Positions 2,966-61,576 of a stretch of DNA of 64,000 nt are shown one piece after another; within the stretch, counting starts at the first letter, position 1; every line of letters starts with the position of its first letter. The DNA comes from Phycicoccus sp. GTDB lineage: Bacteria > Actinomycetota > Actinomycetes > Actinomycetales > Dermatophilaceae. The stretch is from the NCBI GenBank assembly GCA_035418665.1, contig DAOLRO010000001.1:6089-70088 (forward strand), given 5' to 3'. The translations under genes and the position numbers were made by a program. The notes below the pieces were generated by a model, which worked only from the letters and a program-made list of their open reading frames with translations, had not been told where the DNA came from and did not search any database.

Positions 2966-4252
2966 TCACGGTGGGCGTGACCCCCACGGCGTGTAGGTGA
3001 GGAAGGTGGCGGTCCACCAGACCATGCCCACGACCAACAGGGCGAGCAGCAGAGCCACCCGTCGCTTCCAATGCCGCACGATCCCGTCGCCGGTGGAGGT
3101 GCGCATGGCCACGCTCGCGAACAGGGCCGCGAGGGGAAAGTCCAGGAGCAGGAAGCGCCACATGGAGGTGATGGGCCGCACGACAGCGAACAGGTAGAGG
3201 GGGTAGGCCACCGCCCACACCCGGAGCTCAACGGGGATCCACCGTCCGTGCCGGCCGAGGACGAGGGCGATGTAGGTGCCCACGAGGCCGACGAGGACGA
3301 TCACTCCCGCTGCCCCCTTGCTCTCCCAGGCCCATTGCAACCAGAGCACGAAGGGGCCCGCACTGGGTTGCATCCCCCAGGCCCGCTGCACGTCGAAGAA
3401 GGCCGTCGGTATGCCGCTCACCTGGCCGGCGATGGCAGGCCACAGGATGCCCGATATCCCCGTGAGCCCAACCATGGCCAGCGCCGCCGTGCGTTGACCA
3501 TGGAGCGGCGCCTTGCCGCCCTGTTGGTCCTCACGCCACCGCAAGAACAGATGGACCACGACGGCCAATCCCATGGCGGGGGCCACAGCGCGGGTCAGGC
3601 CCAGTGGCACGGCGAGGAGTGCCACGACCCAGTACCTGCGCTGGAGGAGGGCCAGCAGGCTGCCCGCGATGAGCACCATCGCGAGCGCTTCCGTGTAGGG
3701 CTTGAGCAGCACCGTCGTGGCGGGGTAGAAGCACCAGAGGACGGCAGCCAGGAGGGCCAGGCGTTCGCGCTCCGGCCGAGGCTCGGCGTGCACACCGTGG
3801 CGCAGGGTCGCCCAGATGAGAATCGTCGAGAGGGCACCGAGCCCGAGGTTGAGAAGGACCCCCGCAGCGAGGAACGGGACGCCGAGTGCCATCAGGCCGC
3901 GGAGGATCATCGGGAAGAGCGGATAGAAGGCCCACTCGCTGTAGGTCAGGACACCGGTCTCCGGGTCACCCGGGAGCGGCACGGGATAGCCATGGCGGGC
4001 GATCCGTTCGTACCATTCCGTGTCCCACAGCGGGAGCAGGTCGAGGACACCAGGGTCATCGGTGCCCACTCCGGCGGGGTTCTGAAAATGGTTCGCCGCA
4101 ACCCAGAGGCAACCCCACCCGATGAGCCGGGACACGGCATACACGATCAGCAAGGTGCGCACGGGATGGGCCATGGCCTTCGCCGACCACCCGCCCCGGG
4201 CGGGCAAGAGATGCCCCGCGCCCTGGGCAGCCACAGCCGAACCCTCAACCAT
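2966..4252 (-). CDS. Polytopic GT-C glycosyltransferase (PIG-V-like mannosyltransferase)
   Basis: WDTEWYERIARHGYP, WAFYPLFP and YTEAL motifs; many TM helices. Confidence 0.8.
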   Translation of the reverse strand: MVEGSAVAAQGAGHLLPARGGWSAKAMAHPVRTLLIVYAVSRLIGWGCLWVAANHFQNPAGVGTDDPGVLDLLPLWDTEWYERIARHGYPVPLPGDPETGVLTYSEWAFYPLFPMILRGLMALGVPFLAAGVLLNLGLGALSTILIWATLRHGVHAEPRPERERLALLAAVLWCFYPATTVLLKPYTEALAMVLIAGSLLALLQRRYWVVALLAVPLGLTRAVAPAMGLAVVVHLFLRWREDQQGGKAPLHGQRTAALAMVGLTGISGILWPAIAGQVSGIPTAFFDVQRAWGMQPSAGPFVLWLQWAWESKGAAGVIVLVGLVGTYIALVLGRHGRWIPVELRVWAVAYPLYLFAVVRPITSMWRFLLLDFPLAALFASVAMRTSTGDGIVRHWKRRVALLLALLVVGMVWWTATFLTYTPWGSRPP

Positions 4253-6047
4253 CGCGCCAGCGTCGCACGTCCCAGAAGGCGACGCCGCCTGATTCGGTCG
4301 CCGGGCCCAGGACGGACTCGACACTGACACGGAGCAGGGCATTGTCGGGACGTGGAGGGAGGACGACGAGGTCGGCTCGCCAGAACCGAAGGTCCGAGCG
4401 GAACTGCTCGATCTCGATTGGGGTGGCCACCCGGGGGACCTGGTCCCGCGCGATCTCGGCCAACCATTGGGAGAACGGGCGGCGTACGGCCCCACGGGTA
4501 CCCACGCCCGAGCCACTACCGTCTGGCCCCATGAAATAGCCCTCGACGAGCGGGAACTCCCACCGCGCGCTCGCCTGCCAGTCGTTGGCTCGCATATCGA
4601 CGATGTCGGGGGGAGGCACACCCAACACTGCGCCGCCATCCAGGTAGGAACGCCAATCGCCCGACGTGAAGAACTCCGGGACGACGGGGCGCGGGTCGGC
4701 CCACAACCGCGTCGGGACCATCGGGGCCAAGGCGAGGGTGACGGCGACCCCGATGACGCCGAGAGGGCCCCAACGTTGCCAGATCGGGTCGCCGGAATGT
4801 TGGCGCACTCGAACCCTGGTCGGGCCCCATGACCGCCGGATGGCCCAGTCCAGAGCGGCCACGAGAATGGCGGCCGCGGCGGGGACCGTGACGAGCGTCA
4901 ACCGCGTCGGGAGCACGGACTCGAACAGGGGCAGATCCGCGACGAGAGACCAGAGTCCGGGGATCGACGTGGCCTTCCCGTGCAAGGTCACCTCGCTGCC
5001 GAGGGAGAGCCAGACACTCACCAACACGACAAGGGCGCTGGCGCGCACGACGGGGCGGCGGAGGAGGAGCACGACCAAGCCCAAGAGCACGGGCCAGAGC
5101 GGCACCCCGAAGAAGGCGTTCTCCTCGGTCCTGTTCATCGACAAGGCCGCCGAAGCCCAGGGGTCGGCACCGATCGTCCGCGTCGCCCTCCCCCACAGCG
5201 AGGCCAGGTCGTTGGTGGCCACCGGCTGCCACATCGACGTGTAGCTCTGGGGCCCGGCGAACTGCCACCACAGTGGGAAGGCGAAGAGCAGGACCGTGGT
5301 GAGAACCCCAATGGCGACACCGGGCAGCATCGTGCGCCAGGGCAATCGCCGCTGCACAAGCATCGCCAGCGCCGCGATGGCGATCCCCACCGCAGCCAGA
5401 AGAAGGACCTCCTCACCCATCCACAGTTGCCAGGTCACCACGAGGCCGAGCACGGTCCCCTTGCGCCACACCAGTCGTCGGGGGTGAGCCTGTCCGAGGT
5501 CGATCAGTCGATCGATGATCACCGGCACGAGGAATTGGGCGAGAAAGTTCGGGTGGCCGTTGCCGTGGGAGACCATGGCCGGGGAGAAGCCCACGAACAG
5601 GCCCCCGATGAATGCGGCGGCGCGGTGCGCTCCCATCCGCCGGACGAACAGTGCATACCAGCACCACGCCGTGGCCGCGAAGCCGAGCCACTCGATGAGC
5701 AGGAAGGTCCAGTGCGGCCCCAACGTGAGGGTGATCGGAGCAAACGGGATCCCCAGACCCATGACCGTCGCATTGGCGAGCATGTTGACGCCGGTCGGGT
5801 GGTTCTGGAGGGTCGAGAAGAGGGGGTTGGAGAATGTGGCCAGACTGTGGGCCGTGGCTCCGAAGTACCACTCGAAGGCCTGCTGGTCCTGCACACCCTG
5901 CGAGAGGTAGGTGCCTCTGGGATCCACGAAGAGACGGCTCAGCATCCAGAACGCCACCACCGCGTATGCCGTGGCTGCCGCGGCATCGGCCCTTGACCAG
6001 CGCAGTGGCGGCTGCGCGTCAGCGGTCGAGGGCGGCGAGGAGCTCAT
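4245..6047 (-). CDS. Polytopic membrane protein, probable GT-C glycosyltransferase
   Basis: DQQAFEW loop after TM1, NHPTGVNMLAN, GFSPAMVSH, many TMs and a soluble C-terminus. Confidence 0.7.
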   Translation of the reverse strand: MSSSPPSTADAQPPLRWSRADAAAATAYAVVAFWMLSRLFVDPRGTYLSQGVQDQQAFEWYFGATAHSLATFSNPLFSTLQNHPTGVNMLANATVMGLGIPFAPITLTLGPHWTFLLIEWLGFAATAWCWYALFVRRMGAHRAAAFIGGLFVGFSPAMVSHGNGHPNFLAQFLVPVIIDRLIDLGQAHPRRLVWRKGTVLGLVVTWQLWMGEEVLLLAAVGIAIAALAMLVQRRLPWRTMLPGVAIGVLTTVLLFAFPLWWQFAGPQSYTSMWQPVATNDLASLWGRATRTIGADPWASAALSMNRTEENAFFGVPLWPVLLGLVVLLLRRPVVRASALVVLVSVWLSLGSEVTLHGKATSIPGLWSLVADLPLFESVLPTRLTLVTVPAAAAILVAALDWAIRRSWGPTRVRVRQHSGDPIWQRWGPLGVIGVAVTLALAPMVPTRLWADPRPVVPEFFTSGDWRSYLDGGAVLGVPPPDIVDMRANDWQASARWEFPLVEGYFMGPDGSGSGVGTRGAVRRPFSQWLAEIARDQVPRVATPIEIEQFRSDLRFWRADLVVLPPRPDNALLRVSVESVLGPATESGGVAFWDVRRWRDG

Positions 6048-6402
6048 CAACCTGCTCCATCCGGTAGCCCCGCAACACGACGGGGAAGGTCACGTCGGCG
6101 GCCGGACGGCTCGGGGTCTCCACACCGGCGTCCTCGAGGGGGCCCAGCCACTGGATCCACTCCTCGAGGTGCGCATCGACCGGCCCGGGGTCGTAACCCC
6201 GCAGCCCGGTCTCGAAGCGCACGTCGCGCAACTCCTGCGCCGTGAACCCACGATCAAGTGGCAGATCCAAGGGTGGCACGGAGCTCACGGGCGCCGGCAG
6301 CGGGTCGGTTCGAAGGCCTCGCCGCGACGCCCACACACCCAGCGCCACCACCGAGCAGCCGGTCAGGGCCAACGCCACCCAGATCGGCCAGTCACCCCTC
6401 AC
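6019..6402 (-). CDS. DivIVA-domain protein with N-terminal TM
   Basis: Two DivIVA-like repeats: VRFETGLRGYDPGPVD and VTFPVVLRGYRMEQVD. Confidence 0.85.
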   Translation of the reverse strand: MRGDWPIWVALALTGCSVVALGVWASRRGLRTDPLPAPVSSVPPLDLPLDRGFTAQELRDVRFETGLRGYDPGPVDAHLEEWIQWLGPLEDAGVETPSRPAADVTFPVVLRGYRMEQVDELLAALDR

Positions 6403-7241
6403 TCGAGCTCCTTGGGTTCCTCGGATGCTGGCAGGACGGGTGCCCGACTCCCCCGCAGGCCACCGCCTGAGCGATCCGAGGCCTCGATGCGCGCCACGGC
6501 CTCGTCGACGTCATCGGTGACGGTCATCAGGTCGAGATCGCCCGGGCTGATCGTCCCGTGGGCGAGCGCGGCCTCGCGCAGCCAGTCGAGCAGGCCCGAC
6601 CAGTACGACGTCCCCATGAGGACGATCGGGAAACTGGTCACCTTCTTGGTCTGGACCAAGGTGATGGCCTCGAAGAGTTCATCGAGGGTCCCGAACCCAC
6701 CGGGCAGCACGATGAAGCCTTGCGCATATTTGACGAACATCGTCTTGCGCGCGAAGAAGTAGCGGAAGTTGACTCCGAGGTCGACGTATTCGTTGAGGCC
6801 CTGCTCGAAGGGCAGCTCGATCCCCAACCCCACAGAGACCCCACCAGCCTCGACGGCCCCCTTGTTCGCGGCTTCCATGGCACCGGGCCCGCCACCGGTG
6901 ATCACGGCATATCCCGCAACCACGAGGGCCTTGGCGACCCGGATCCCCAGGTCATAGGTGGGGTCCTCGGGCTTGGTGCGTGCGGACCCGAAGACACTGA
7001 CCGCCGGCCCGACCTCGGCGAGCGCGCCAAAACCTTCGACGAACTCCGCCTGGATGCGCATCACCCGCCAGGGGTCGGTGTGGACCCAGTCGGCACTCCC
7101 CCGCGAGTCAAGCAGTCGCTGGTCGGTGGTCTCCTCGGGCACCTGACCGCGGCGCATGACGAGCGGACCCTTGAAGTAGTCCCCTTGGGCCCCGGTCACC
7201 TCGGCTCCAGACCCCTTGCCGGAGCGACCCTCGACGGTCAT
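6399..7241 (-). CDS. LOG family (TIGR00730) nucleotide phosphoribohydrolase
   Basis: VFGSAR, TGGGPGAMEAANKGA, PGGFGTLDELFE. Confidence 0.92.
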   Translation of the reverse strand: MTVEGRSGKGSGAEVTGAQGDYFKGPLVMRRGQVPEETTDQRLLDSRGSADWVHTDPWRVMRIQAEFVEGFGALAEVGPAVSVFGSARTKPEDPTYDLGIRVAKALVVAGYAVITGGGPGAMEAANKGAVEAGGVSVGLGIELPFEQGLNEYVDLGVNFRYFFARKTMFVKYAQGFIVLPGGFGTLDELFEAITLVQTKKVTSFPIVLMGTSYWSGLLDWLREAALAHGTISPGDLDLMTVTDDVDEAVARIEASDRSGGGLRGSRAPVLPASEEPKELE

Positions 7242-8344
7242 GACGGGCCTCCGCTCAGCCAGCGGATCATGGCCGCCTCAGCCGCGACCAATTGATCGAC
7301 GGGGCACTGCTCGTCGTCCATATGGGCGAGGTTGGGGTCGCCGGGACCGAAGTTCACCGCCGGCACCCCCATGGCCGAGAACCTCGCAACGTCGGTCCAG
7401 CCCTGCTTCCCCGTCACGTCCACACCGAGCGCCGCGACGAAGGCCTGCGCCGCCGGAGTGCCGAGCCCGGGCAAGGCGCCACCGGCGTTGTCCGTGATGG
7501 CCAACTCGAAGCCGTCGAAGACGGTGCGCACGTGCGCCTCGGCCTCCTCCTCAGACACATCCGGCGCGTAGCGATAGTTCACCGTCACCACGCACCGGTC
7601 GGGGATGACATTGCCGGCGATGCCACCGCTGATCCCGACCGCGTTGAGGGCCTCGCGATACTCCAGGCCGTCGATGGTCGCCACTCTTGCCTCGTATGCC
7701 GTGAGTCGCCTGAGGATTTCGCCGGCGTCGTGGATGGCGTTGTGTCCTTTCCAGGGGCGAGCCGAGTGTGCGGCGATGCCCTTGGTGGTGATCTCAGCGC
7801 GGAGTGTGCCCTTGCAGCCCCCTTCGACGTTGCCGTCCGTGGGCTCGAGGAGCACGGCGAAGTCGGCATCCTCGATGAGGTCGGGTCGCTGCTGCTGGAC
7901 GTGGAGAAGGCCGTTGTATTCGGACTCGATCTCCTCGCCCTCGTAGAAGACAAAGGTGAGGTCGCGGTTGGGTTGGCGCACCTCGTGGGCCACGCGCAAC
8001 TGGACAGCCACACCCCCCTTCATGTCGACCGTGCCGCGGCCCCAGAGGACCTCCTCCTCACCCACCCGCTCGCGCCGGACGGGCAGATTGCTCGGGTCCT
8101 TGGTGAGGGGGACGGTGTCGATGTGCCCGGCGAGCACCACGCGGTCGGCGTGGCCCAGGTCGGTCCTGGCAATCAGGGTGTTGCCCAAGCGAGTGACCGT
8201 CAGGTGTGGCAGCCCGGACAGCACGTCCTCGATGGCATCGGCCAGGGCAGCCTCGTCGAGGCTCACGGAGGGGATGTCGCACAGGGCTCCGGTCAGGGTG
8301 ACCACATCGGTGGTGAGGTCGATCGTCAAGGGGTGAGACGGCAT
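7238..8344 (-). CDS. dapE: Succinyl-diaminopimelate desuccinylase
   Basis: AGHIDTVP, GRGTVDMKGG, YEGEE, GWTDVARF, AHMDDE; divergent from dapD. Confidence 0.93.
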   Translation of the reverse strand: MPSHPLTIDLTTDVVTLTGALCDIPSVSLDEAALADAIEDVLSGLPHLTVTRLGNTLIARTDLGHADRVVLAGHIDTVPLTKDPSNLPVRRERVGEEEVLWGRGTVDMKGGVAVQLRVAHEVRQPNRDLTFVFYEGEEIESEYNGLLHVQQQRPDLIEDADFAVLLEPTDGNVEGGCKGTLRAEITTKGIAAHSARPWKGHNAIHDAGEILRRLTAYEARVATIDGLEYREALNAVGISGGIAGNVIPDRCVVTVNYRYAPDVSEEEAEAHVRTVFDGFELAITDNAGGALPGLGTPAAQAFVAALGVDVTGKQGWTDVARFSAMGVPAVNFGPGDPNLAHMDDEQCPVDQLVAAEAAMIRWLSGGPS

Positions 8345-8403
8345 ACCGATGAGCCTAACGACCTCACCCGGGGACCTTCGGCGATCCACGTACCCTTGTC
8401 GCC

Positions 8404-9351
8404 ATGACGCAGACCCGCACCGCCTGGGGCCACGGCCTGTCCACCCGCACGGCCGATGGCACCGTGCTCGACACCTGGTTCCCTCGGCCGGTGCTCGGCA
8501 CACCTCCGGAGGTGGCTGACGAGGCGTATGCCGCGGACGTCGCCCTGCTCGACCCGCTTGTCCGCGATGACGAGGCTCGCGGTGTCCAGATCGGCAGGGG
8601 CCTGGTAGCGATCGATCTCGACGCGGCACCCACCTCGACGGAGGACGCCTACCTCCGGCTGCACCTGCTCTCCCACCGCCTCGTCACCCCGAACTCGATC
8701 ACCCTGGACGGGATCTTCGGGGTCCTCGCCAATGTCGTGTGGACCAACCATGGACCGTGCGCGGTCGAGGGTTTCGAACGAACCCGGGCACGGCTCATGG
8801 CGCGTGGCCCGGTGCAGGTTTTCGGGATCGACAAGTTCCCTCGGATGACCGACTACGTCGTGCCCAGTGGGGTGCGGATCGCGGACGCCGACCGGGTCCG
8901 GCTCGGAGCCCACCTCGCTCCCGGGACGACGGTCATGCACGAGGGTTTCGTGAACTTCAACGCCGGCACGCTCGGCACCTCGATGGTCGAGGGGCGGATC
9001 AGTCAGGGTGTCGTGGTCGGTGACGGCTCGGACATCGGGGGTGGCGCCTCGACGATGGGCACCCTGTCCGGCGGCGGCAACGAGCGCGTCAGCCTCGGCG
9101 AGCGCTGTCTGTTGGGTGCCGAGTCGGGGCTGGGGATCGCGCTCGGGGACGACTGTGTGGTCGAGGCCGGGCTCTACGTCACGGCCGGCACCAAGGTGAC
9201 TCTGCCGGATGGCACCGTCGCAAAGGCCCGCGATCTGTCGGGACAGTCCAACCTGCTCTTCCTGCGCGACTCCGTGACCGGGGCCGTCCTGGCGCGCCCG
9301 CGCGACGGCCACGGGATCGTCCTCAACTCGGCCCTCCACGCCAACGACTGA
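8404..9351 (+). CDS. dapD: Tetrahydrodipicolinate N-succinyltransferase
   Basis: [43 protein letters not shown], hexapeptide repeats. Confidence 0.95.
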
Positions 9352-9357
9352 GCGCCC

Positions 9358-10233
9358 ATGCCACGGACCGATCGGGGAGCCTTCACGTTCGCCGAGGAGC
9401 ACCACCGCCCCCGACTCGTCGGGCGGCTGCTCCTGCTCGGACTTGCGCTCGTCGTCGGGATCGGCGGTTGGTGGGGGGTCCGCGCCGCCCTGGACTCCTT
9501 CGCGACCATGGAGTGTCGCGTCACGGCCTCGGAGCAGACCTTTGACTGGGCTCCTGATCAGGCAAGCAACACGGCCGTGATCACGGCCATCGCGCTGCGT
9601 CGCGGGATGGTCCCGCGCGCCGCGACGATCGCCATCGCCACCGCCCTTCAGGAGAGCAAGGTCCGCAACATCACCTATGGCGACCGGGATTCGGTCGGGC
9701 TCTTCCAGCAACGCCCCTCCCAGGGCTGGGGCACGGTGGAGCAGATCATGAATCCCGAATACTCCTCCAATGCCTTCTACGACGCGCTCGAGAAGGTCAG
9801 CGGCTGGGAGAATGCGGACATCGCGACGGCGGCCCAGGAGGTCCAGCGCAGCGCCGACGGACGGGCTTATGCCGCCCACGAGGCCAAGGCGCGGGTGACC
9901 GCCTCAGTGCTCTCGGGCCACTCGCCGGCGGGCATCGGGTGCCGCCTCGACGACCCGACCACCGCTGGTGACCCGGCGGCACTGGTTGCCCTCATCAAGG
10001 CCGATCACGACCTTGACGCTCGGGTCGAAGGGCGCAGCGTCGTGATCGACGTCGCCGACGCCCGGCAGGCGTGGGCGATCGGTTCCTGGGGCGTGGCTCG
10101 AGCCGTCGACACCGGCGCCAGGTCCGTGCAGGTCGGTGACAAGCAGTGGTCGCGGTCGCGAGCGAGCTCGGCCCTGACGTGGTCCACCTCCTCCACCCCG
10201 CAACCCCAGACCCGCGTCGTCCTCACCCTCTGA
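9358..10233 (+). CDS. Membrane-anchored protein with lysozyme-like domain
   Basis: N-terminal TM; ATALQES..GDRDSVGLFQQRPSQGWG motif typical of actinobacterial lysozyme-like modules. Confidence 0.75.
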   Translation: MPRTDRGAFTFAEEHHRPRLVGRLLLLGLALVVGIGGWWGVRAALDSFATMECRVTASEQTFDWAPDQASNTAVITAIALRRGMVPRAATIAIATALQESKVRNITYGDRDSVGLFQQRPSQGWGTVEQIMNPEYSSNAFYDALEKVSGWENADIATAAQEVQRSADGRAYAAHEAKARVTASVLSGHSPAGIGCRLDDPTTAGDPAALVALIKADHDLDARVEGRSVVIDVADARQAWAIGSWGVARAVDTGARSVQVGDKQWSRSRASSALTWSTSSTPQPQTRVVLTL

Positions 10234-10668
10234 ACCCACCGCGCTACGGCGCAGTAGGTGCTGCTCCAACGGCATTTACTGCGCCGTAGCCAGCGCGACG
10301 CGGAAGCGGTTCGGTGGGCAGAACGCACAAGCGAGCCCACGGCATACCCAAGATTTTTCTTGGGTCAGGCGTGGGCGATCGGTTCCTGGGGCGTGGCTCG
10401 AGCCGTCGACACCGGCGCCAGGTCCGTGCAGGTCGGTGACAAGCAGTGGTCGCGGTCGCGAGCGAGCTCGGCCCTGACGTGGTCCACCTCCTCCACCCCG
10501 CAACCCCAGACCCGCGTCGTCCTCACCCTCTGAACCCACCGCGCTACGGCGCAGTAGGTGCTGCTCCAACGGCATTTACTGCGCCGTAGCCAGCGCGACG
10601 CGGAAGCGGTTCGGTGGGCAGAACGCACAAGCGAGCCCACGGCATACCCAAGATTTTTCTTGGGTCAG
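10066..10668. repeat. Exact 300-bp tandem duplication (10066-10365 = 10366-10665)
   Basis: Line-by-line identity at offset 300. Duplicates the last ~55 codons of the upstream gene and its downstream hairpins. Confidence 0.97.
10243..10290. repeat. Long-stem hairpin (second copy at 10543-10590)
   Basis: GCTACGGCGCAGTA...TACTGCGCCGTAGC 14-bp perfect arms, extendable with G-U pairs. Confidence 0.85.
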
Positions 10669-10680
10669 CCGTGGGCTCGC
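10631..10680. terminator. Hairpin between convergent genes, carrying a CGGCATAC motif
   Basis: GCGAGCCCACGGCATACCCAAGA-tttt-TCTTGGGTCAGCCGTGGGCTCGC; 23-bp arms with 2 mismatches; 20 nt after the gltA stop. Confidence 0.75.
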
Positions 10681-10699
10681 GTTTCGTCGAGGCGTTGCC

Positions 10700-11992
<1,293 letters not shown>

Positions 11993-12163
11993 CCGTCACG
12001 TCCTTCACAGGTGAGTGGCTGTGGGCGGGCGCCGCAGGGTTGGGCGACGTCGCCGTTTCATCCCGACCCTACCGTCGCGTCCGGATCGAGGGTCAATCGG
12101 TCCGCGCGGTGAGGGTCAGCGGCGGGCTGACCATGAACGCGTGCGAAGTGTCGGGGCAAGATC

Positions 12164-13870
12164 TCACGTCTGCGGATGGTGGAGGTCGACGGCCGGACGC
12201 TCGGAGCGGATCCTCGGGATCGAGTCGAAGTTGTGTCTCGGCGGCGGGCAGGAGGTCGCCCACTCGAGACCTGCCCCGAAGCCCCAGGGGTCATCACTCG
12301 CGACGAGCGGGGCGCGGCGCCACGTCACCCAGACGTTCCAGAGGAAGACCAAGGTCGAGGCCCCCAGGAGGAAGGCGCCCACGGAGGACACGTCGTTCAT
12401 CCACTGGAAGCCGTCCTCGGGCAGGTAGTCGGCGTACCGGCGCGGCATGCCCTGCATCCCCAGGACGTGCTGGATGAGGAAGGTCATGTGGAAGCCGATG
12501 AAGAGCATCCAGAAGTGAATCTTGCCCAGGCGCTCGTCGAGCATCCGTCCAGTCAACTTCGGCCACCAGAAGTAGTAGCCGGAGAACATCGCGAAGACGA
12601 CGGTGCCGAAGACGGTGTAGTGGAAGTGGGCCACGATGAAGTAGGTGTCGGTGACGTGGAAGTCGATGGCGGGGCTCGCGATGATCACCCCGGTCAGGCC
12701 GCCGAAGAGGAAGGTCGCCATGAAGCCGAGCGCGAAGATCATCGGCGTGGCGAAACTCAACTGCCCCCGCCACATGGTCCCCAGCCAGTTGAAGAACTTC
12801 ACTCCGGTGGGCACGGCAATGAGCATCGACATGATGGCGAAGAACGGCAGCAACACCTGACCCGTGCCGTACATGTGGTGGGCCCAGACCGACACCGAGA
12901 GCGCCGAGATCGCAATCGTCGAGAAGACCATGGTCTTGTAGCCGAAGAGCGGCTTCCGGCTGAAGCACGGGATGACCTCGGAGATGATCCCGAAGAAGGG
13001 CAACGCGATGATGTAGACCTCGGGGTGCCCGAAGAACCAGAAGATGTGCTGCCACAGCATCGGCCCACCGTTGTCAGGGTCGAAGACGTGGGCGCCGAAC
13101 CGCCGGTCCGCGCCCAGGGCGAAGAGCGCCGCCGCGAGGGCCGGGAAGACCAAGATCACGAGGATCGACGTGAGCAATACGGTCCACGTGAACAACGGCA
13201 ACCGGAACATCGTCATCCCGGGGGCTCGCATCGTGAGGATCGTGGTGATGAAGTTGACGGAGCCGAGGATGGTGCCGAACCCCGACAGCGCCAGCCCGAA
13301 CACCCACAGGTCGCCACCGAGGCCGGGGCTGTAGGACACGTCCGACAGCGGCGCATACGCGAACCAGCCGAAGGCCGCCGCTCCCCCGGGCGTGAGGAAG
13401 CCACCGATGGCGATCAGCCCGCCGAAGAGGTAGAGCCAGTAGGACAGCATGTTGAGGCGGGGGAAGGACACGTCCGGAGCGCCGATTTGCAGGGGCATGA
13501 TCGCATTGGCAAAACCGGCGAAGAGCGGGGTGGCGAAGAGCAGCAACATGATCGTGCCGTGCATCGTGAAGAGTTGGTTGAACTGCTCGGGGTTGTCGAC
13601 AATATCGAGCCCCGGTTGCCACAACTCGGCCCGGATGAGCATCGCCAACGCTCCCCCGATGAGGAAGAACGCGAACGTCGTCGCGAAGTAGAGGTTGCCG
13701 ATCACCTTGTGGTCGGTCGTGGTGATGATGCGCACGATGCGCTCCCCCGGCCTGGCAGGCGGGGTGCGAAGGAGGGATCGGGACCGGTCGGTCAGAGTCG
13801 CCGGAGCAGCATTGGGTATGCCGTGGGGCTGGCCCGTGGAGGCCGGGCGGATCCTTGGTTGGATCGCCAT
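12164..13870 (-). CDS. ctaD: Cytochrome c oxidase subunit I
   Basis: [42 protein letters not shown]. Confidence 0.96.
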
Positions 13871-51042: not shown

Positions 51043-51087
51043 ACCACCTTCGAGGTCCGCGTCGGTGCCTGCTCCTAGCATGAGCCC

Positions 51088-52356
51088 GTGAGCGACCCCG
51101 CTGGCCCCCGACCCACGCTGCCCGAGCGTGCCGCCGACACCTCGGCCGAGCAGCCCTGGCCGGTGCGCCTGCTGTCGGTCAAGGTCGGCGAATACATCGA
51201 CAGGATGTCGGTCTGCTGGGTCGAGGGTCAGGTCGTCCAGCTCACCAGGCGACCCGGCAGCGGCACGGCCTACCTCACCCTGCGCGACACCGACGTGGAC
51301 ATGTCCTTCTCCGTCGCCATCCGCACCACGGCTCTCGACGCCATGCCGCCGCTCCAGCCCGGAGCGAGGGTGGTCACCCAGGTCAAGCCGGTCTTCTGGC
51401 CTCGCGGCGGCAGTCTCCAACTTGATGCCCGACAGATCCGCCCGGTCGGGATCGGCGAGTTGCTCGCTCGCCTCGAGGCGCTCAAGACCTTGCTGGCGTC
51501 CGAGGGACTCTTCGATGCCCGACGCAAGCGCCCCCTCCCCTTCCTGCCACGGCGGATCGGCCTGATCACCGGGCGGGCCAGCGCCGCAGAGAAGGATGTC
51601 GTCGAGAACGCCCGCCGCCGCTGGCCCAGCGCCACCTTCGAGATGCGCGCCGTCGCCGTCCAGGGGCCGACCGCGGTCACCGAGGTCTACGCCGCCCTCC
51701 GCGACCTCGATGCCCACGACGAGGTCGACGTCATCGTGATCGCACGCGGCGGCGGCAGCACCGAGGACCTCTTGCCCTTCAGCAATGAGGCGATGATCCG
51801 TGCCGTCTCACAGGCACGCACCCCGGTGGTTTCTGCCATCGGTCATGACATCGACACCCCCCTCCTCGACCTCGTCGCCGACGCGCGTGCGTCAACCCCG
51901 ACGGACGCCGCCAAACTCGTCGTGCCGGATGCGAGCGCTGAGTATGCCGGGCTGGTCACCTCCCGCGACCGACTTCATCGCGCGCTCGGGGCGCGGCTGC
52001 ACCGCGAGCGCGACCGGCTGCATCAGATCCGGACGCGTCCGGTCATGGCCGACCCGGGCGCGTACGCCCGCACCCAGAGAGAGGTGATCGCGGGCCTGGG
52101 CCAGCGGGCTCATCGCCGCCTCGCGAGTCGGATCCACACCGAGCAGCAGGGCATCACCCACCTCAGGCGCGCGGCGCGATCCCTCTCCCCGCTCGCCACC
52201 CTCGATCGAGGCTATGCCTTGGTCACCCAGGTCGACGGCACGATCGTCCGTGATCCCGAGGCGCTCGAGGCCGACGAGCTGCTCCGGGTCGTCGTGGCCG
52301 AAGGCGACTTCGCGGTGCGCACCGTGGGCGCTCCCGCTGCCGACGACTCGACCTGA
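51088..52356 (+). CDS. xseA: Exodeoxyribonuclease VII large subunit
   Basis: WVEGQ, ARGGGSTEDL, SAIGHDID, STPTDAA, LSPLATLDRGYA. Confidence 0.95.
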   Translation: MSDPAGPRPTLPERAADTSAEQPWPVRLLSVKVGEYIDRMSVCWVEGQVVQLTRRPGSGTAYLTLRDTDVDMSFSVAIRTTALDAMPPLQPGARVVTQVKPVFWPRGGSLQLDARQIRPVGIGELLARLEALKTLLASEGLFDARRKRPLPFLPRRIGLITGRASAAEKDVVENARRRWPSATFEMRAVAVQGPTAVTEVYAALRDLDAHDEVDVIVIARGGGSTEDLLPFSNEAMIRAVSQARTPVVSAIGHDIDTPLLDLVADARASTPTDAAKLVVPDASAEYAGLVTSRDRLHRALGARLHRERDRLHQIRTRPVMADPGAYARTQREVIAGLGQRAHRRLASRIHTEQQGITHLRRAARSLSPLATLDRGYALVTQVDGTIVRDPEALEADELLRVVVAEGDFAVRTVGAPAADDST

Positions 52357-52382
52357 CGGTGCCTCGACATAAGGTGTGCGAT

Positions 52383-52625
52383 GTGGCAGCCAAGGAGAAC
52401 GACGTGGCATCGGGCGCCGGCGCCAACTCAGACGTCGCAGCGATGCCTTACGAGGTCGCTCGCGACGAGTTGGCCTCGATCGTGGGTCGGCTCGAGAGCG
52501 GTCAGGTGGGCCTCGAGGAGTCGATGACCCTGTGGGAGCGCGGCGAGGCCCTCGCAGCGCACTGCGCGACGTGGCTCGACGCGGCCGAGGCCAAGCTCAA
52601 CGCCACTCAGTCGCCACCCGCCTGA
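52383..52625 (+). CDS. xseB: Exodeoxyribonuclease VII small subunit
   Basis: YEVARDEL..LESGQVGLEESMTLWERGEALA. Confidence 0.93.
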   Translation: MAAKENDVASGAGANSDVAAMPYEVARDELASIVGRLESGQVGLEESMTLWERGEALAAHCATWLDAAEAKLNATQSPPA

Positions 52626-52693
52626 CCCGGTCACCCGATCGGTGACCGTGGCCTGCCGCGCCGGTGGCCCCCACAGCCGGCCGCTGGCCCGCG

Positions 52694-53257
52694 TCAGCGA
52701 GGCGTGACGACCTCGAGGTGCTCGATGAGCTGCGCCAACTCCTCGAAGGTGCCTGTCCCCGTGACCAAGGTCGTCAGCTCACCCTTGGCGCCGGGCACGT
52801 GCACGAGCGAGTTCTGGACCTTGGCGCCGCGCTCGTACTTCGTCCAGGTCCGGCCATCGACCTCGACCGTGCCGACCTTCGTGGCGCGATTGACCTCGGT
52901 CTCGACCCACTTCGAAGTGGCGTCCATGGTCTGCTCGACCGACGCGTAGTTCCCTGAGGGGGCTTGGTAGCCGGCCAGCCAGGTCATGGCACCTTCACCC
53001 GTGCGAACGTAGCGCGCGCTCGTCGCGGTCCAACCCTTGGGGAGCCCCACGGCGGTGACAATGGGCCAGCCGCTCTCCCGGACCACGTCCTGCGCTGTGC
53101 GCTGCACGTCGACGGGTGGCCCCGAGAGGGAGTTGACCCGGGGCACCATGAAGATGATGACGAGCATCAGCCCACCGATGACCAGCATCGAGCGCACCAT
53201 GTTGGGCAGCGAGCCCATCGAATAGCGACTGCGCGGGGCCTGGTCGGGTGTGGTCAC
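52694..53257 (-). CDS. DUF4245 family membrane-anchored protein
   Basis: NMVRSM plus TM, LPKGWTATSA, VTGTG; usual position after xseB. Confidence 0.8.
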   Translation of the reverse strand: MTTPDQAPRSRYSMGSLPNMVRSMLVIGGLMLVIIFMVPRVNSLSGPPVDVQRTAQDVVRESGWPIVTAVGLPKGWTATSARYVRTGEGAMTWLAGYQAPSGNYASVEQTMDATSKWVETEVNRATKVGTVEVDGRTWTKYERGAKVQNSLVHVPGAKGELTTLVTGTGTFEELAQLIEHLEVVTPR

Positions 53258-53382
53258 CGCACCATGGTCGCCGACGAAGCCACCGGCCACCGAATCGGGC
53301 CCATGGGGCGCGCACTAAAGTTGTGGGTGAGGGCCGCGGCGAGGCACGCGACCCGCGTCGACCGAAGGTGGTGAACGGCGAG

Positions 53383-54309
53383 ATGGGCCCGCGTGTCCTT
53401 GTCATCGGTGAGGTACTCATCGACATCGTGCGCACTCCGGACGGGCAGGTGAGCGAACACGTCGGTGGATCCCCGGCCAATGTCGCCACCGGGCTGGCAC
53501 GCCTGGACCATCCCACCGACTTCGCCTCGACCCTCGGCCGTGACGAGCGCGGGACCGCCGCTCTGGCCCATCTCAAGCGGCATGGGGTCGAGACCCTCCC
53601 CTCGAGCCGCACGGCGCATCCGACCTCGGTCGCCGACGCCACACTCGACGAGTCCGGCGCCGCGACCTACATCTTCGCCCTGCACTGGAACCTCGCTCCT
53701 GTCCCGATCCGCAGCGGTGTCGGGCACCTGCACACCGGCTCGATCGCCGCGACCCAACCGCCCGGCGGCGAATTGGTCGTGCGCACCATCCGCGAGGCTC
53801 GCGACGATGCCACGGTGTCCTACGACCCCAACATCCGCCCGAGCATCATGGGGGCTGCCGAGCACGTGCGGCCGCGGATCGAGGAACTCATCGCCCTCAG
53901 CGACGTCGTCAAGGCCAGTGAGGACGACTTGGACCACCTCTACCCCGGTCGGGCGATCGACGGCGTGCTGCTCGACTGGTCGCACTTGGGCGCTGCCCTC
54001 ACAGTCGTGACTCTGGGCGGCGACGGGGTCGCCTACCGGGTCCCCGCCACCGGCGAGGTATGCCGGGTGCCGGCTGCCGTGACCGACCCGGCTGCCGTCG
54101 TGGACACCGTTGGCGCGGGCGACTCCTTCATGGCCGGACTGATCTCGGCCCTGCTCGATGCCGGCCTGCTCGGTTCGGCCGACTCCCGCCTCCGCCTGCG
54201 CACGGCCGACCGGGCGGCGATCGAGCCCGCGATCACCCGGGCCCTCGCCACCAGTGGCGTGACGGTCCGCCATCAGGGCGCCTACTCCCCCACTCGCGAC
54301 GAACTCTGA
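53383..54309 (+). CDS. PfkB family carbohydrate kinase (fructokinase-like)
   Basis: GEVLID, GGSPANVA, YDPNIRP, VKASEDD, VDTVGAGDSF. Confidence 0.92.
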   Translation: MGPRVLVIGEVLIDIVRTPDGQVSEHVGGSPANVATGLARLDHPTDFASTLGRDERGTAALAHLKRHGVETLPSSRTAHPTSVADATLDESGAATYIFALHWNLAPVPIRSGVGHLHTGSIAATQPPGGELVVRTIREARDDATVSYDPNIRPSIMGAAEHVRPRIEELIALSDVVKASEDDLDHLYPGRAIDGVLLDWSHLGAALTVVTLGGDGVAYRVPATGEVCRVPAAVTDPAAVVDTVGAGDSFMAGLISALLDAGLLGSADSRLRLRTADRAAIEPAITRALATSGVTVRHQGAYSPTRDEL

Positions 54310-54344
54310 CCTCCTGAACAACTCAAGAGCCTGAAAGGTTGACG

Positions 54345-56066
<1,722 letters not shown>

Positions 56067-56069
56067 CAC

Positions 56070-56585
56070 ATGGCTGACGAGATCAAGACCCCACGCACCT
56101 TCGACGACTTGCTCGCCGCGAACAGAGAGTTCGCAGCCACCAACGAGATCCTCGGTTTCGACGGCATCGCTCACGCCGGGGTCGCCGTGGTCACCTGCAT
56201 GGACAGCCGGATCGACCCGCTGGGCATGCTGGGGCTCAGGCCCGGCGACGCCAAGATCTTCCGCAACCCGGGCGGGCGGGTCACCGGCAATGCTCTCGAG
56301 GCGCTGGTCCTGGCCGTCCATCTGCTCAACGTCGACCGCATTGTCATCGCCCCGCACACCCGATGCGCCATGGCCAGCAGCACCGAACAGGAGTTGCGCG
56401 ACCGGATCAGCGCGTCCTCGGGCACCGACGCCGCTTGGCAGGGCTTCCACGTCGTCCGCGACCAGAAGGAAGCCCTGCGTGCCGATGTGGCTGCCGTTCG
56501 CGCACATCCCCTCATCGCGGACCGCGCCCTCGTCGGGGGCTTCATCTATGACGTCGACACCGGCCTGCTGGGCCCTGTCGACTGA
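56070..56585 (+). CDS. Beta-carbonic anhydrase (short, clade D-like)
   Basis: CMDSR, RNPGG, HTRC. Confidence 0.9.
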   Translation: MADEIKTPRTFDDLLAANREFAATNEILGFDGIAHAGVAVVTCMDSRIDPLGMLGLRPGDAKIFRNPGGRVTGNALEALVLAVHLLNVDRIVIAPHTRCAMASSTEQELRDRISASSGTDAAWQGFHVVRDQKEALRADVAAVRAHPLIADRALVGGFIYDVDTGLLGPVD

Positions 56586-56603
56586 CCCTCCCCCACGTCA
56601 GCG

Positions 56604-57290
56604 ATGCAGCGCCCGCAACGCCCCCAACGCACCCGGACCCAGCCGGGCACGCGGCCCACGACTCCGGAGCATGCGTGGGCGGTGCTGCGTGCCGGAAATG
56701 CCCGCTTCATGGCCGATGCCCGCGCCCACCCGCACGAGGGCCTGCACGTCCGCAAGCGACTGGCCGGCAAACAGAACCCCTTCGCCATCTTTTTCGGCTG
56801 TGCCGACAGCCGCGTGGGCGCCGAGATCATCTTCGACCAAGGACTCGGTGACCTCTTCGTCATCCGCACAGCCGGGCACGTCATCGACCTCAGCGTCCTG
56901 GGCTCGATCGAGTACGGGATCGCCAAACTCCACATCCCGCTCATCGTTGTGCTCGGGCACGACTCTTGCGGCGCGATCACTGCGACCGCAGAGGCCGTCG
57001 CCACTGGCGACATGCCAGGCGGCTTCATCCGCGACATCGTCGAGCGGGTCACCCCCTCGCTCTTCACCGCCCGCCGCGACAATCCCACGGCAACCGTCGA
57101 CGAGATCGAGACCGAACACATCCGGCAGACTGCCACGCTGCTCGCCGAGCGCTCGAGCCTGATCGCGACCCGGATCGCCGAGGGTCGGCTGGCGATCGCG
57201 GGGGCGCAATATGCCCTGGCCGAAGGTGAGGCCCGACTCAAGTGCGCGATCGGGCCCCTGGGCGAGACCCCGACGATCTCCGACGTCTGA
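56604..57290 (+). CDS. Beta-carbonic anhydrase
   Basis: GNARF, CADSR, FDQGLGDLFVIRTAG, GHDSCGA. Confidence 0.93.
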   Translation: MQRPQRPQRTRTQPGTRPTTPEHAWAVLRAGNARFMADARAHPHEGLHVRKRLAGKQNPFAIFFGCADSRVGAEIIFDQGLGDLFVIRTAGHVIDLSVLGSIEYGIAKLHIPLIVVLGHDSCGAITATAEAVATGDMPGGFIRDIVERVTPSLFTARRDNPTATVDEIETEHIRQTATLLAERSSLIATRIAEGRLAIAGAQYALAEGEARLKCAIGPLGETPTISDV

Positions 57291-57306
57291 TCTGGGACAG
57301 TGGCGC

Positions 57307-58128
57307 ATGCCCAACTCCGTGCGGGTCGACTCCCTGCGCATCCACCCCCTCAAGTCCGGCGCCATCCGCGCGCTCGAGCGTTCTGAAGTCACCCCTGCCG
57401 GACTGACGGGTGACCGTCGCTGGATGGTGGTCGACGCCGCCGGTGAGTGCGTGACGGCACGCAACGACCGCGCCCTCGTCACGATCTCCGCAGAACCCTT
57501 GCCGGACGAAGGTCTTCGCCTCACCTCCCGCTCAGGAAGGACCGTGGAGGTATGCCGTCCGCTCACCTCTCCCTCCGACTCCCCTGCGCGATCGGTCACC
57601 GTGCACGGGCGCGACGCGGCCCCCGGCCTGCCCCTCGACGAGCCCGCCCAGGCCCTCGTCCGTGAGGTCCTCGGACGCGACGACGTGACCGTCCTCTGGT
57701 GCAGCGACGAGACCGTGAGAAGACTCAACCCGGACTTCTCCCGCGACGGCGACTCCACGGCATACGCGGACGGCTATCCAGTGACCCTCGCGAGCCTGGC
57801 GTCGCTGCGCGAACTCAACCGCCTGGGGGACATGGATCTGCCGATCGATCGCTTCCGCCCCAACATCGTCATCGACGGCGACCTCACACCCTTCACCGAG
57901 GACACGTGGAGACGTGTGCGGATCGGCGAGATCGACTTCCGGGTGGCGCGTGGCGTCGATCGGTGCTCGATGACCCTGCTCGACCCCGACACCCTGACGA
58001 CCGGCGCCGAGCCCATCCGGACCTTGTCCAAGCACCGCAAGTGGGAGGGCAAGACGTGGTTCTGCGTGCACCTCATCCCCGAGGGCTCCGGCGGCCTCGC
58101 GGTGGGTGACCCGGTCTCGATAGCGTGA
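57307..58128 (+). CDS. MOSC domain protein
   Basis: IHPLKS, GDRRWMVVD, ADGYP, RFRPNIVI, RCSMT. Confidence 0.9.
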   Translation: MPNSVRVDSLRIHPLKSGAIRALERSEVTPAGLTGDRRWMVVDAAGECVTARNDRALVTISAEPLPDEGLRLTSRSGRTVEVCRPLTSPSDSPARSVTVHGRDAAPGLPLDEPAQALVREVLGRDDVTVLWCSDETVRRLNPDFSRDGDSTAYADGYPVTLASLASLRELNRLGDMDLPIDRFRPNIVIDGDLTPFTEDTWRRVRIGEIDFRVARGVDRCSMTLLDPDTLTTGAEPIRTLSKHRKWEGKTWFCVHLIPEGSGGLAVGDPVSIA

Positions 58129-58133
58129 GGCCC

Positions 58134-59537
58134 ATGTCGACCCAACCCCCTGCCACCGCACTCCCCCAGTTCCCTGAGGGCTTCCTCTTCGGGGCCGCGA
58201 CCGCGTCCTTCCAGATCGAGGGTTCGACGACGGCCGACGGGCGATCGAGGTCGATCTGGGACACCTTCTGCGAGATCGAGGGCAAGGTTGCCAACAAGGA
58301 CACCGGCGACCCGGCCTGCGACCACTACCGCCGGATGCCGGAGGACGTCGTCCTCATGCAGGAGCTCGGGCTGCAGGCCTATCGCTTCTCGGTCGCCTGG
58401 CCCCGCGTGATCCCCACGGGCACCGGTGCCATCAACCCGGCGGGGATCGACTTCTACGACCGGCTCGTCGACCAGTTGCTCGGCGCGGGGATCCGTCCCG
58501 TCGTCACGCTCTACCACTGGGATCTGCCCCAGGTGCTCGAGGACCTCGGTGGCTGGCAGAGCCGGGACATCGCGGGCTGGTTCGGTGAATACACCGACGC
58601 AGTGACCTCGGCGCTCGGCGACCGGGTCACCAATTGGACCACCCTCAACGAGCCGTGGTGCTCCTCGATCCTCAGCTACACCTTGGGTCACCACGCGCCG
58701 GGGCACTTCAGCCAGGAGGAGGGCCTCATCGCGGCTCACCACCTCATGCTCGCGCACGGGACCGCCGTGCCGATCATCCGGGCCAACGCGCCCGGGGCCG
58801 AGGTGTCGATCACCCTCAATCCCACCCAGGTCATCGGGCCGGAGTCGCCCACTGACGCGGATCGCGACGCCGTGCGTCGCGCCGACAACATCCTCAACGG
58901 CATCTTCTTCGGCCCCCTCTTCCACGCGGCCTACCCCAACACCATGCTCGAGGATGTCGACCACCTCACCGACGCCTCATGGATCCACGATGGCGACCTC
59001 GAGACGATCAGCACCCCCCTCGACAACCTCGGCATCAACAACTACTTCCCGACGCGGGTCAAGGCGGGCGTGCCCGGCGCCAACCCCCTGGGTATGCCGG
59101 GATGTGAGGGCGTGGAGGGCGTCGCCCCGGAGGGGCAACTCACCGACATGGGTTGGGAGTGCAACCCCGGCGCACACCGCGACATCCTCAAGCGGTCAGC
59201 AGAGGAGAGCGGCCTCCCGATCTACGTCACCGAGAACGGCTCGGCCTGGCCCGGTGACGTCGTGACGGACGACACCGGGAGTCCGGCCGTCCACGATCCG
59301 GAGCGCACGGCATACCTGCTTTCCCACTTGGCGGCCGTGCGGGAGGCCATCGACGACGGCGCGGACATCCGTGGCTATTTCGCCTGGTCGCTCATGGACA
59401 ACTTCGAGTGGGCCTTCGGCTACGACAAGCGCTTCGGGATCGTCCACGTCGATTACGACAGCCAGGTCCGCACGATCAAGGACTCGGGTCACACCTACAC
59501 CGAGGTGATCAAGAGCAACACCGCCAACCGAGGGTGA
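58134..59537 (+). CDS. Beta-glucosidase (GH1)
   Basis: FLFGAATASFQIEG, TLYHWDLP, TLNEP, YVTENG, WSLMDNFEW. Confidence 0.95.
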   Translation: MSTQPPATALPQFPEGFLFGAATASFQIEGSTTADGRSRSIWDTFCEIEGKVANKDTGDPACDHYRRMPEDVVLMQELGLQAYRFSVAWPRVIPTGTGAINPAGIDFYDRLVDQLLGAGIRPVVTLYHWDLPQVLEDLGGWQSRDIAGWFGEYTDAVTSALGDRVTNWTTLNEPWCSSILSYTLGHHAPGHFSQEEGLIAAHHLMLAHGTAVPIIRANAPGAEVSITLNPTQVIGPESPTDADRDAVRRADNILNGIFFGPLFHAAYPNTMLEDVDHLTDASWIHDGDLETISTPLDNLGINNYFPTRVKAGVPGANPLGMPGCEGVEGVAPEGQLTDMGWECNPGAHRDILKRSAEESGLPIYVTENGSAWPGDVVTDDTGSPAVHDPERTAYLLSHLAAVREAIDDGADIRGYFAWSLMDNFEWAFGYDKRFGIVHVDYDSQVRTIKDSGHTYTEVIKSNTANRG

Positions 59538-59719
59538 CTGCCGCCCGACCGGCCGGCACGAGTCCCGCGGCCCTCGCCTGCCCTTCTCATACCCCCGGGG
59601 GTCACCAGAAGATCACGATTTGCCCGCTCCGGGCGACAAAACGGTCGAGATGATGGACAGTTCCGGCGCACGATGACAGCGTGGGGCCGCACACCATCAT
59701 TCGACCAAGGAGTTCTCCG

Positions 59720-60565
59720 GTGTCTTTTGCTCCCCGTCGGCGCGTGGCCCTCACGGCCGCAGCCGTCCTGTCCTCGCTCGCGCTCGCCGCGTGCGGTTCC
59801 TCCTCCTCTGACGGCGGCAGCTCCTCGGCCGCCGCGGGTTCCGGTGACTCCGGCGTGACGCTGCTCAAGGCCGGCACGCTGCAGGTCTGCACCCACCTGT
59901 CGTACAAGCCCTTCCAGTTCAAGGACGACTCCGGGGCCGTGGTCGGCTTCGACGTCGACCTGATGGACCTGGTCGCCAAGAAGCTCGGCGCCAAGCAGGA
60001 GATCGTCGACATCGACTTCGCCCAGATCACCTCGGGCGCGGTCTTCGCGGCCAAGAAGTGTGACGCCGGTGCCGCCGCCACGACGATCAACGACAAGCGC
60101 AAGGGCGCCATCCTCTTCTCCGACCCGTACTTCGACGCCACCCAGGCGCTCCTGGTCAAGAAGGGCTCGGGCATCACCGACCTCACCGGCCTCAAGGGCA
60201 AGAAACTCGGAGTCCAGACCGACACCACCGGCGCTGAGTACGGCGAGAAGAACAAGGACGCCAACGGCTACGAGGTCGTTGTCTTCGACGACCTGCCCAC
60301 CCAACTCGCGGGCGTGCTGTCGGGCCGCGTCGACGCCGCCGTCAACGACAACGGTGTCGTCTTCGACTACGCCAAGGACAACCCGGGCACCGAGGTCACC
60401 AAGGAGTTCAACACGGGTGAGCAGTACGGCCTGATGTTCCAGAAGGACAACGCCAACGGCACCGCGCTCGCCAAGGTGACCAACGAGGTCCTCAAGGAAG
60501 CCAAGGCCAGCGGCGAGTACAACACCATCTTCAAGAAGTGGTTCGGCGTCGACGCCCCCAAGTGA
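59720..60565 (+). CDS. Polar amino-acid ABC substrate-binding lipoprotein
   Basis: AAGGAG RBS, LALAAC lipobox, GFDVDL, FSDPY, EQYG. Confidence 0.92.
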   Translation: MSFAPRRRVALTAAAVLSSLALAACGSSSSDGGSSSAAAGSGDSGVTLLKAGTLQVCTHLSYKPFQFKDDSGAVVGFDVDLMDLVAKKLGAKQEIVDIDFAQITSGAVFAAKKCDAGAAATTINDKRKGAILFSDPYFDATQALLVKKGSGITDLTGLKGKKLGVQTDTTGAEYGEKNKDANGYEVVVFDDLPTQLAGVLSGRVDAAVNDNGVVFDYAKDNPGTEVTKEFNTGEQYGLMFQKDNANGTALAKVTNEVLKEAKASGEYNTIFKKWFGVDAPK

Positions 60566-60587
60566 CGCGTCACCCTTTCACCACTCG

Positions 60588-60625
60588 CGAGGCGGCGGTA
60601 CGGTTCAGTCCGTGCCGCCGCCTCG
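60588..60625 (+). terminator. Intercistronic hairpin
   Basis: CGAGGCGGCGGTACGG / CCGTGCCGCCGCCTCG arms with a bulge. Confidence 0.6.
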
Positions 60626-60751
60626 GCGCGTGTCACGAGCAGTGATCACGGCATCGCTTCACAGCAGCACCTGCACGGCCTGCACCACCCGCACCATCCC
60701 ACGGCACCACCCGAATGACCCGGCCCAGACCGGCGACGACCAGGAGTCCTG

Positions 60752-61576
60752 ATGAGCACAGTGACGGCTGACCCACCCACCAAGAAGAGGCTGTCGCCGC
60801 GCAAGCGCGCCCAGCGGATGCGGTGGGCGCAATACCTCGTCCTGGCGATCGTCACGGTCGTGGCCATCAGCGTGGCCGACTGGGGCCAGATCCAGTCGGT
60901 CTTCTTCCGCGGGGACATGATCAAGGAGACCTTCGCCCAAGGCCTCCCGACGGCCTTCAAGAACACCATCGTCTACACCCTCGGCGCCTTCGTCCTCGGC
61001 CTGATCTGGGGCACGATCCTGGCCCTCATGCGGCTCTCGTCCGTGGCCCCCTATCGCTGGCTGGCCTCGACCTACATCGAGTTCTTCCGCGGGCTGCCGG
61101 CCATCGTCGTCTTCATCGCCTTCGGCCTGCTCCCGCTGGCCTTCCCGGGTCTGGTCATCCCCTTCGACCCCTACGGCACGGTCTGGATCGCGCTGGGACT
61201 CGTAGGTGCGGCATACATGGCCGAAACCATTCGCGCCGGCATCCAGGCCGTCCCCAAGGGACAGGTGGAGGCCGCCCGATCATTGGGTATGCCGTCCGGC
61301 GTGGCCACGCGGAAGATCGTCCTTCCGCAGGCCTTCCGGATCATCACTCCCCCGTTGACCAACGAGTTGATCCTCCTCGTCAAGGACTCCTCGCTCGTCT
61401 ACATCCTCGGCCTCTCGCGCGACGCCTTCGAGTTGACGAAGTACGGTCGAGACATCGCCAACACCAACGCCAACCTCACGCCGCTGGTGATCGCCGGCTT
61501 CTGCTACCTGCTCATCACCCTCCCGCTCTCCATGGTCGTCCGGCGCATGGAAGCCCGTCAGAAGAAGGAGCGCTGA
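60752..61576 (+). CDS. Polar amino-acid ABC permease
   Basis: [37 protein letters not shown]. Confidence 0.93.

Follow-up and report, generated by a model that had tools for sequence, protein, structure and literature searches.

The window analysed here is a 64,000-nucleotide stretch of a Phycicoccus sp. genome (family Dermatophilaceae; contig DAOLRO010000001.1, positions 6,089 to 70,088). Its most over-represented 8-mer is the octamer GTATGCCG (reverse, CGGCATAC), present in 49 copies against 1.8 expected under an order-3 Markov model, and this word is considered here as a possible tag of self DNA in natural transformation. An Rfam scan of the window gave no match. The genome that holds the window (G000) comprises 3.03 Mb and is 78% complete; its 2939 gene models are our own codon-based calls, made with the word masked beforehand. 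A position is called reachable where the encoded peptide allows the word, and filled where the word is present. A preliminary description had listed copies together with their reading frames. The octamer lies at all 13 positions cited and the frame agrees at 12; the copy at 13816 encodes G-I-P only if a cytochrome-oxidase-like open reading frame begins at the upstream ATG 13870, and the model start is 13735. The copies and related features of the window are as follows.

588..61294, both strands: 49 dispersed copies of GTATGCCG/CGGCATAC, with TG as the preferred 3' extension
1744..1751, plus strand: copy read in the gene-model frame as GCG TAT GCC GGG (A-Y-A-G)
3409..3416, plus strand: copy read in the gene-model frame of a minus-strand gene as AGC GGC ATA CCG (S-G-I-P)
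10700..11992, minus strand: gltA (label from the preliminary description), in the top 0.5% for codon bias, with 0 of 3 reachable positions filled
13816..13823, plus strand: copy belonging to the minus-strand gene 12164-13870, either in its N-terminal extension, which is uncertain, or in its 5' leader
16657..16664, minus strand: copy, ACC GGC ATA CCC (T-G-I-P)
24867..24929, no strand assigned: intergenic inverted pair of copies flanked by divergent genes
30166..30173, plus strand: copy, GTG TAT GCC GTG (V-Y-A-V)
32543..32572, no strand assigned: close inverted pair within a gene, A-Y-A-A at 32543 and R-H-T (CGG CAT ACT) at 32565
34854..34881, no strand assigned: intergenic, terminator-like hairpin of two inverted copies with a T-rich tail
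36117..36124, minus strand: copy, ACG GCA TAC (T-A-Y)
37705..44072, no strand assigned: longest stretch of the window without the word (6.4 kb), its genes mostly accessory-looking
48552..48559, minus strand: copy, GCG GCA TAC (A-A-Y)
50380..50387, plus strand: copy, GCG TAT GCC GTG (A-Y-A-V)
54892..54899, minus strand: copy, ACG GCA TAC (T-A-Y)
57550..57557, plus strand: copy, GTA TGC CGT (V-C-R)
59092..59099, plus strand: copy, GGT ATG CCG (G-M-P)
61287..61294, plus strand: copy, GGT ATG CCG (G-M-P)

Contigs from four runs covering 43500-63400 are near-clonal and uninformative on polymorphism at word sites.

Abundance and codon usage of the octamer

G000 contains 2461 copies of the word, 1210 in one orientation and 1251 in the other, or about one per 1,200 bases (about 0.8 per kb), and the reversed word occurs 30 + 34 times. 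A non-palindromic word far above chance, at roughly one per kb and equal between the strands, is what an uptake sequence looks like. Copies are denser outside genes (1.84 per kb) than inside them (0.67 per kb), with a peak between convergent genes, and terminator-like inverted pairs occupy 26 of 337 convergent gaps. Coding copies make up 73% of the total (1790/2461), which rules out repetitive extragenic palindromic (REP) elements, the intergenic clustered palindromic units. The flanks carry a weak consensus spanning about -9 to +18, with TG favoured on the 3' side and, less strongly, T at +13 and +18 and A near -8. The word shows no skew by replichore (873 vs 876; chi2 61 on 161 contigs), and this absence rules out a replichore-polar signal such as the FtsK-orienting polar sequences (KOPS).

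The word is used in all six reading frames, at 5 to 26 times the level of a synonymous within-gene shuffle. Observed and shuffled coding copies number 939/133 for TAT-GCC, 526/22 for GCA-TAC, 150/7 for GGC-ATA, 97/21 for ATG-CCG, 53/8 for CGG-CAT and 25/1 for GTA-TGC. The preliminary description had held that the word forces disfavoured codons and is maintained at the DNA level against codon preference. For three codons the concentration is plain: GCA takes 526 of 726 positions in nCG-GCN-TAC and 29 of 974 otherwise, ATA takes 150 of 462 in nnC-GGC-ATA-C and 3 of 1163 in neighbouring contexts, and GTA takes 25 of 55 in GTA-TGC-CG and 1 of 398 otherwise. More than half of all ATA codons in the genome (150/274) lie within the word. 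Among the 994 contexts of the form G-TAY-GCC-G, nnG-TAT-GCC-G outnumbers nnG-TAC-GCC-G by 939 to 55, in line with the earlier expectation. The description of TAT as a rare codon needs correction, since TAT supplies 31% of tyrosine codons in G000 (28% outside the word; 23% in word-rich and 8% in word-poor relatives). With 11 of 272 in the most codon-biased reference genes, TAT is non-optimal rather than rare.

The share of filled positions depends on frame (908/1409 for Y-A, 516/1079 for A-Y, 146/906 for G-I) and falls with codon bias: it is about 0.45-0.54 across deciles 1-6, 0.25 for the top decile and 7/54 for the top 3%. The gltA gene and two SBP genes (25118 and 59744), which had been singled out earlier as lacking copies, are all in the top 1.5% for codon bias and have 0/3, 0/1 and 0/0 reachable positions filled; with four such positions among them they prove little alone, and it is the genome-wide thinning that bears the point out. 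Translational selection may restrain the word in highly expressed genes.

Orthologues from 12 gene families in about 40 genomes give the same picture. Of the reachable positions, 180 of 438 are filled in word-rich genomes and 3 of 334 in word-poor ones, a set that includes genomes with other words. Set against the poor-genome consensus, the 180 filled sites divide into 56 that fit unchanged, 17 that require an amino-acid change, 90 with a weak consensus and 17 that are gapped. Residues at word sites are conserved as elsewhere (306/349, 0.877, vs 55566/63537, 0.875). Additionally, the tripeptide TAY exceeds expectation 3.6-fold in G000, 2.2-fold in rich and 1.5-fold in poor relatives, and YAV does so 2.9-, 1.5- and 1.1-fold. 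The synonymous shuffles and the orthologue comparison rule out conserved peptides written in ordinary codons. Together with the tripeptide skew and the thinning in codon-biased genes, they support the view that the word overrides codon choice and is kept at the DNA level against codon preference. This effect on codon and tripeptide usage matters for codon-based estimates of expression in these genomes.

Distribution, dialects and related systems

The named organisms closest to a protein of the window are Phycicoccus, Ornithinimicrobium, Ornithinibacter and Ca. Phosphoribacter, a result that puts the source in Dermatophilaceae. Among 151 Dermatophilaceae genomes, 80 carry at least 725 copies of GTATGCCG and the remaining 71 carry at most 392. 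The 24 genomes from other families of the order have no more than 117 copies, close to their controls. A LeuS/DegV/ComEC tree, whose deep branches are weakly supported, intermingles rich and poor genomes, and this pattern suggests that the word is ancestral in the family and was then lost or respelled many times. A dialect, GGATGCCG, replaces GTATGCCG in 8 of the 151 genomes, from four genera, and the two co-occur in 2. In sampled stretches, other top words are GTATG[A/C/G]CG (G006, G158), CGATGCGG (G011), GTACGCCG (G116) and CGAAGGGG(G) (G077).

Some of these genomes look transitional. Both GTATGCCG and GGATGCCG are abundant in G133 and G168, and their congener G084 has almost only GGATGCCG, possibly an ongoing dialect switch. 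Separately, the over-represented words CGAAGGGGG, CGATGCGG, GTACGCCG and GGATGACG of GTATGCCG-poor genomes grade into GTATGCCG (loci L283-L289 of G077, L290-L295 of G011, L296-L302 of G116, and L008); within this series, same-strand depletion of the kind described below is seen only for the G077 word.

Mobile DNA lacks the word. Prophage and island contigs of G000 hold 0 copies in 7.1, 7.0, 6.5 and 9.3 kb, and the near-identical phage locus L391 holds 1 copy in 10.8 kb; of 59 capsid-related loci, only L391-L392 were counted, the hosts of the others being unassigned. The longest word-free stretches are mostly prophage, integrase, polysaccharide, secretion and resistance islands, as labelled from reading their proteins, and a few carry ordinary genes. 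Viral loci chosen by the inverted-pair pattern proved to be chance matches, as 1 of 79 loci of at least 4 kb reached 0.3 extra copies per kb.

Descriptions of uptake sequences are limited to two Gram-negative families (PMC2817400), and these are the closest systems: the DNA uptake sequence (DUS) of Neisseriaceae (GCCGTCTGAA) and the uptake signal sequence (USS) of Pasteurellaceae (AAGTGCGGT). According to that paper, they share with GTATGCCG a density of about 0.8 per kb, a non-palindromic form, equal orientations, spacing more even than random, higher density between genes, terminator-like inverted pairs, raised tripeptides, a weak flank consensus, absence from foreign genes and lineage variants. 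Unlike them, GTATGCCG belongs to a high-GC Gram-positive host with Tad/Flp pili and is 73% coding. Its main frames also use non-optimal codons, whereas DUS and USS frames correlate with preferred codons (PMC2817400). The main texts of the open-access literature gave no description of GTATGCCG or of such a signal in actinobacteria.

HIP1 of cyanobacteria is another hyper-abundant octamer found in all reading frames, but it is palindromic and linked to a methyltransferase; GTATGCCG lacks that symmetry, and the methyltransferase families searched gave no match for it. Spread of a methyltransferase target by methyl-directed repair has been proposed for HIP1. Methylation of only one strand at an asymmetric site would confer strand specificity, such as the spacing of the octamer shows. 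For GTATGCCG such an origin is nonetheless very improbable, given that none of four methyltransferase families was found in G000 at its 78% completeness, that the Eco57I family was found in no more than 16 of 41 rich genomes and its members differ widely in length, and that the word is non-palindromic.

Strand-specific spacing and what may read the word

Neighbouring copies in G000 alternate between strands, with 1294 opposite-strand and 596 same-strand neighbours once hairpins are removed (p 3e-59). At 45-1000 bp, 409 same-strand pairs are observed against 902 expected, and 987 opposite-strand pairs against 902. Out to 1 kb, same-strand pairs stay at 0.3-0.6 of expectation, and they come back up near 2 kb; copies on one strand repel each other to about 1.5 kb, and opposite-strand pairs show no fall. 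Five control 8-mers lack same-strand depletion. In the weaker frames, filling rises about six-fold with distance to a same-strand copy, from 0.09-0.11 within 500 bp to 0.58-0.63 beyond 1.5 kb, and is flat with respect to the other strand. The rule extends to relatives (pooled observed/expected pairs, same 223/406 and opposite 456/394), to GGATGCCG in G063 (63/99 and 91/100) and to the G077 9-mer (3/13 and 16/13). It also stays with the genomic strand where the two copies lie in genes transcribed in opposite directions (51 same vs 88 opposite). This, with enrichment of both orientations in sense strands, rules out an RNA-level or one-per-transcript signal.

The uptake signal of Pasteurellaceae behaves differently. 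The control comprised 38 of 59 metagenome loci of at least 5 kb, those left after dereplication and a filter on USS density (467 sites); the loci were hairpin-picked and their taxon was assumed from the word. At 45-1000 bp it gave 108 same-strand and 127 opposite-strand pairs, a ratio of 0.85 against 0.41 in G000 (Fisher p 7e-7). An ordinary double-strand uptake sequence of the Neisseria/Haemophilus type could account for all the classical DUS features, with deletion between close direct repeats thinning same-strand pairs, and the control is itself short of such pairs under 200 bp (9/28 same, 25/28 opposite). This account is improbable: the control is not strand-specific at 200-1000 bp, the five control 8-mers show no same-strand depletion, and under an orientation-blind model copies on opposite strands should repel each other as well, which is not seen.

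The preferred reading, to which we give about an even chance, is that GTATGCCG works like an uptake sequence, as a self tag for natural transformation that would be read on the single donor strand. Uptake or recombination would be more frequent for a donor strand with the word than for a strand that lacks it, and biased recombination would likely spread the word. A new copy would spread only where its own strand has none within about one fragment length (1-1.5 kb), and copies on the other strand would make no difference. ComEC lets only one DNA strand through (PMC7811141). In toy models, the best fit comes from a tag that each strand must have for itself, and an orientation-blind tag repels all pairs, unlike the data. 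The earlier analogy to DUS and USS therefore holds for most features and fails for spacing, which is strand-specific here to 1.5 kb. Judged by that spacing the word lacks orientation independence, so it is likened to uptake sequences in its putative working, by analogy, rather than classed as one of them.

A wider proposal, made more tentatively, is that Dermatophilaceae have a self-DNA tag that would be the first one known from Gram-positive bacteria. Some protein would read it on a single strand in transformation, and the tag would be ancestral in the family, its spelling having changed repeatedly (GTATGCCG, GGATGCCG and, at the far end, CGAAGGGGG). If so, it would be a third, independent case of uptake sequences and would point to a hidden, species-selective exchange of genes within a family that is common in activated sludge; DNA of this organism occurs mostly in sludge, digester and wastewater metagenome runs. 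Adding the 8-base tag might make these strains transformable, and the strand-specific spacing makes the site of tag action, at the cell surface or after strand separation, directly testable.

Several observations weigh against a transformation tag. A single-strand reader is without close precedent, because known uptake sequences are orientation-independent (shown for USS in PMC1939737) and the USS control barely prefers a strand. One-mismatch forms of GTATGCCG are mostly unenriched and do not obey its spacing rule, and the candidate dialects CGATGCGG (G011) and GTACGCCG (G116) show no same-strand depletion. Competence genes are equally intact in word-poor genomes, so the machinery does not discriminate. 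No residue convincingly tracks word or dialect in ComEA, ComEC, four tad-1 pilins, DprA or ComM. Finally, toy models of Chi-like or polar, two-ended or nicking readers also yield same-strand repulsion.

The first of these readers would be the helicase-nuclease AdnAB. As it resects inward from a DNA end, it would halt or begin to load RecA on meeting a copy in the right orientation, each direction of travel needing its own sites. Chi of RecBCD/AddAB is likewise an asymmetric 8-mer and is reportedly read one way as single-stranded DNA. Chi sites are skewed towards the leading strand, but GTATGCCG is not; it is also denser and forms hairpin pairs, and the family's universal resection enzyme is AdnAB, with RecC patchy. 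Orientation-specific reading would explain same-strand repulsion directly, AdnAB-type nuclease domains occur in 151 of 151 genomes, and a slight head-to-head excess in G000 (285 vs 239) is what a two-ended process could give. We still consider a Chi-like signal unlikely, given the missing skew, the word-free resident prophage, RecC in only 8 of 41 rich genomes, AdnA and AdnB columns that do not track the word beyond background, and a head-to-head excess that relatives do not repeat (113 vs 100). The part of PMC13000450 consulted names no Chi for AdnAB. The head-to-head pair was also rejected as a working unit (45-500 bp, p 0.049 in G000, unreplicated). Its flanks match at 8.01 of 24 positions against 8.03 when shuffled, and being no more alike than that, such pairs are not local inverted duplications.

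A further reader would be an intracellular repair or replication-restart protein that loads on or nicks one strand and acts within about 1 kb, so that both strands need coverage. Strand-specific even spacing without skew and the genome-wide distribution agree with this, but there is no candidate protein, repeated loss and respelling across the family tree would be odd for a core function, and long word-free stretches are tolerated. We rank it slightly below the Chi-like signal.

Competence genes and minor observations

For the transformation tag, the machinery is in place. ComEC is found in 151 of 151 family genomes and ComM in 30 of 30, and G000 carries comEA-comEC, yraN-comM-dprA and three tad loci. 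Two tad clusters are needed for transformation of Micrococcus luteus, as PMC4322843 reports, and two of the G000 clusters are laid out like them. Presence tests found ComEC, the AdnAB nuclease, the FtsK family, ComM and a tad-1 pilin in nearly all genomes. RecC and Eco57I-type methyltransferases have a patchy distribution across the family, which does not follow the word. Residue covariation over 17 alignments gave nothing above background, with three DprA columns weakly suggestive.

Of 81 family genomes, RecC occurs in 8 of the 41 that are word-rich and 17 of the 40 that are word-poor, a slight anticorrelation uncorrected for kinship. A tad-1 minor pilin match carries an internal stop in L360 (G077) and L366 (G119), both GTATGCCG-poor. 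Adjoining the tad-1 cluster and a whiB gene, G000:C60:7169-11909 holds the gene of a large FtsK/SpoIIIE-like ATPase whose N-terminal part is FHA-like; the gene is probably broken across two frames (labels from sequence).

A stretch of letters, ATGCCGTC, is shared with a longer DUS form, probably by coincidence. The same probably applies to GCCGTC, common to GTATGCCGTC and the Neisseria DUS core as printed in PMC2817400. Distinct from the octamer, G000 has a REP-like palindromic family with arms CTACGGCGCAGTA...TACTGCGCCGTAG (55 arm copies), for example at 10244-10289 of the window. Beside gltA, at about 10066-10668, lies an exact tandem duplication with a 300-base period, either a real duplication or an assembly artefact, and each 300-base unit contains one GTAG-type palindromic repeat and one octamer copy.

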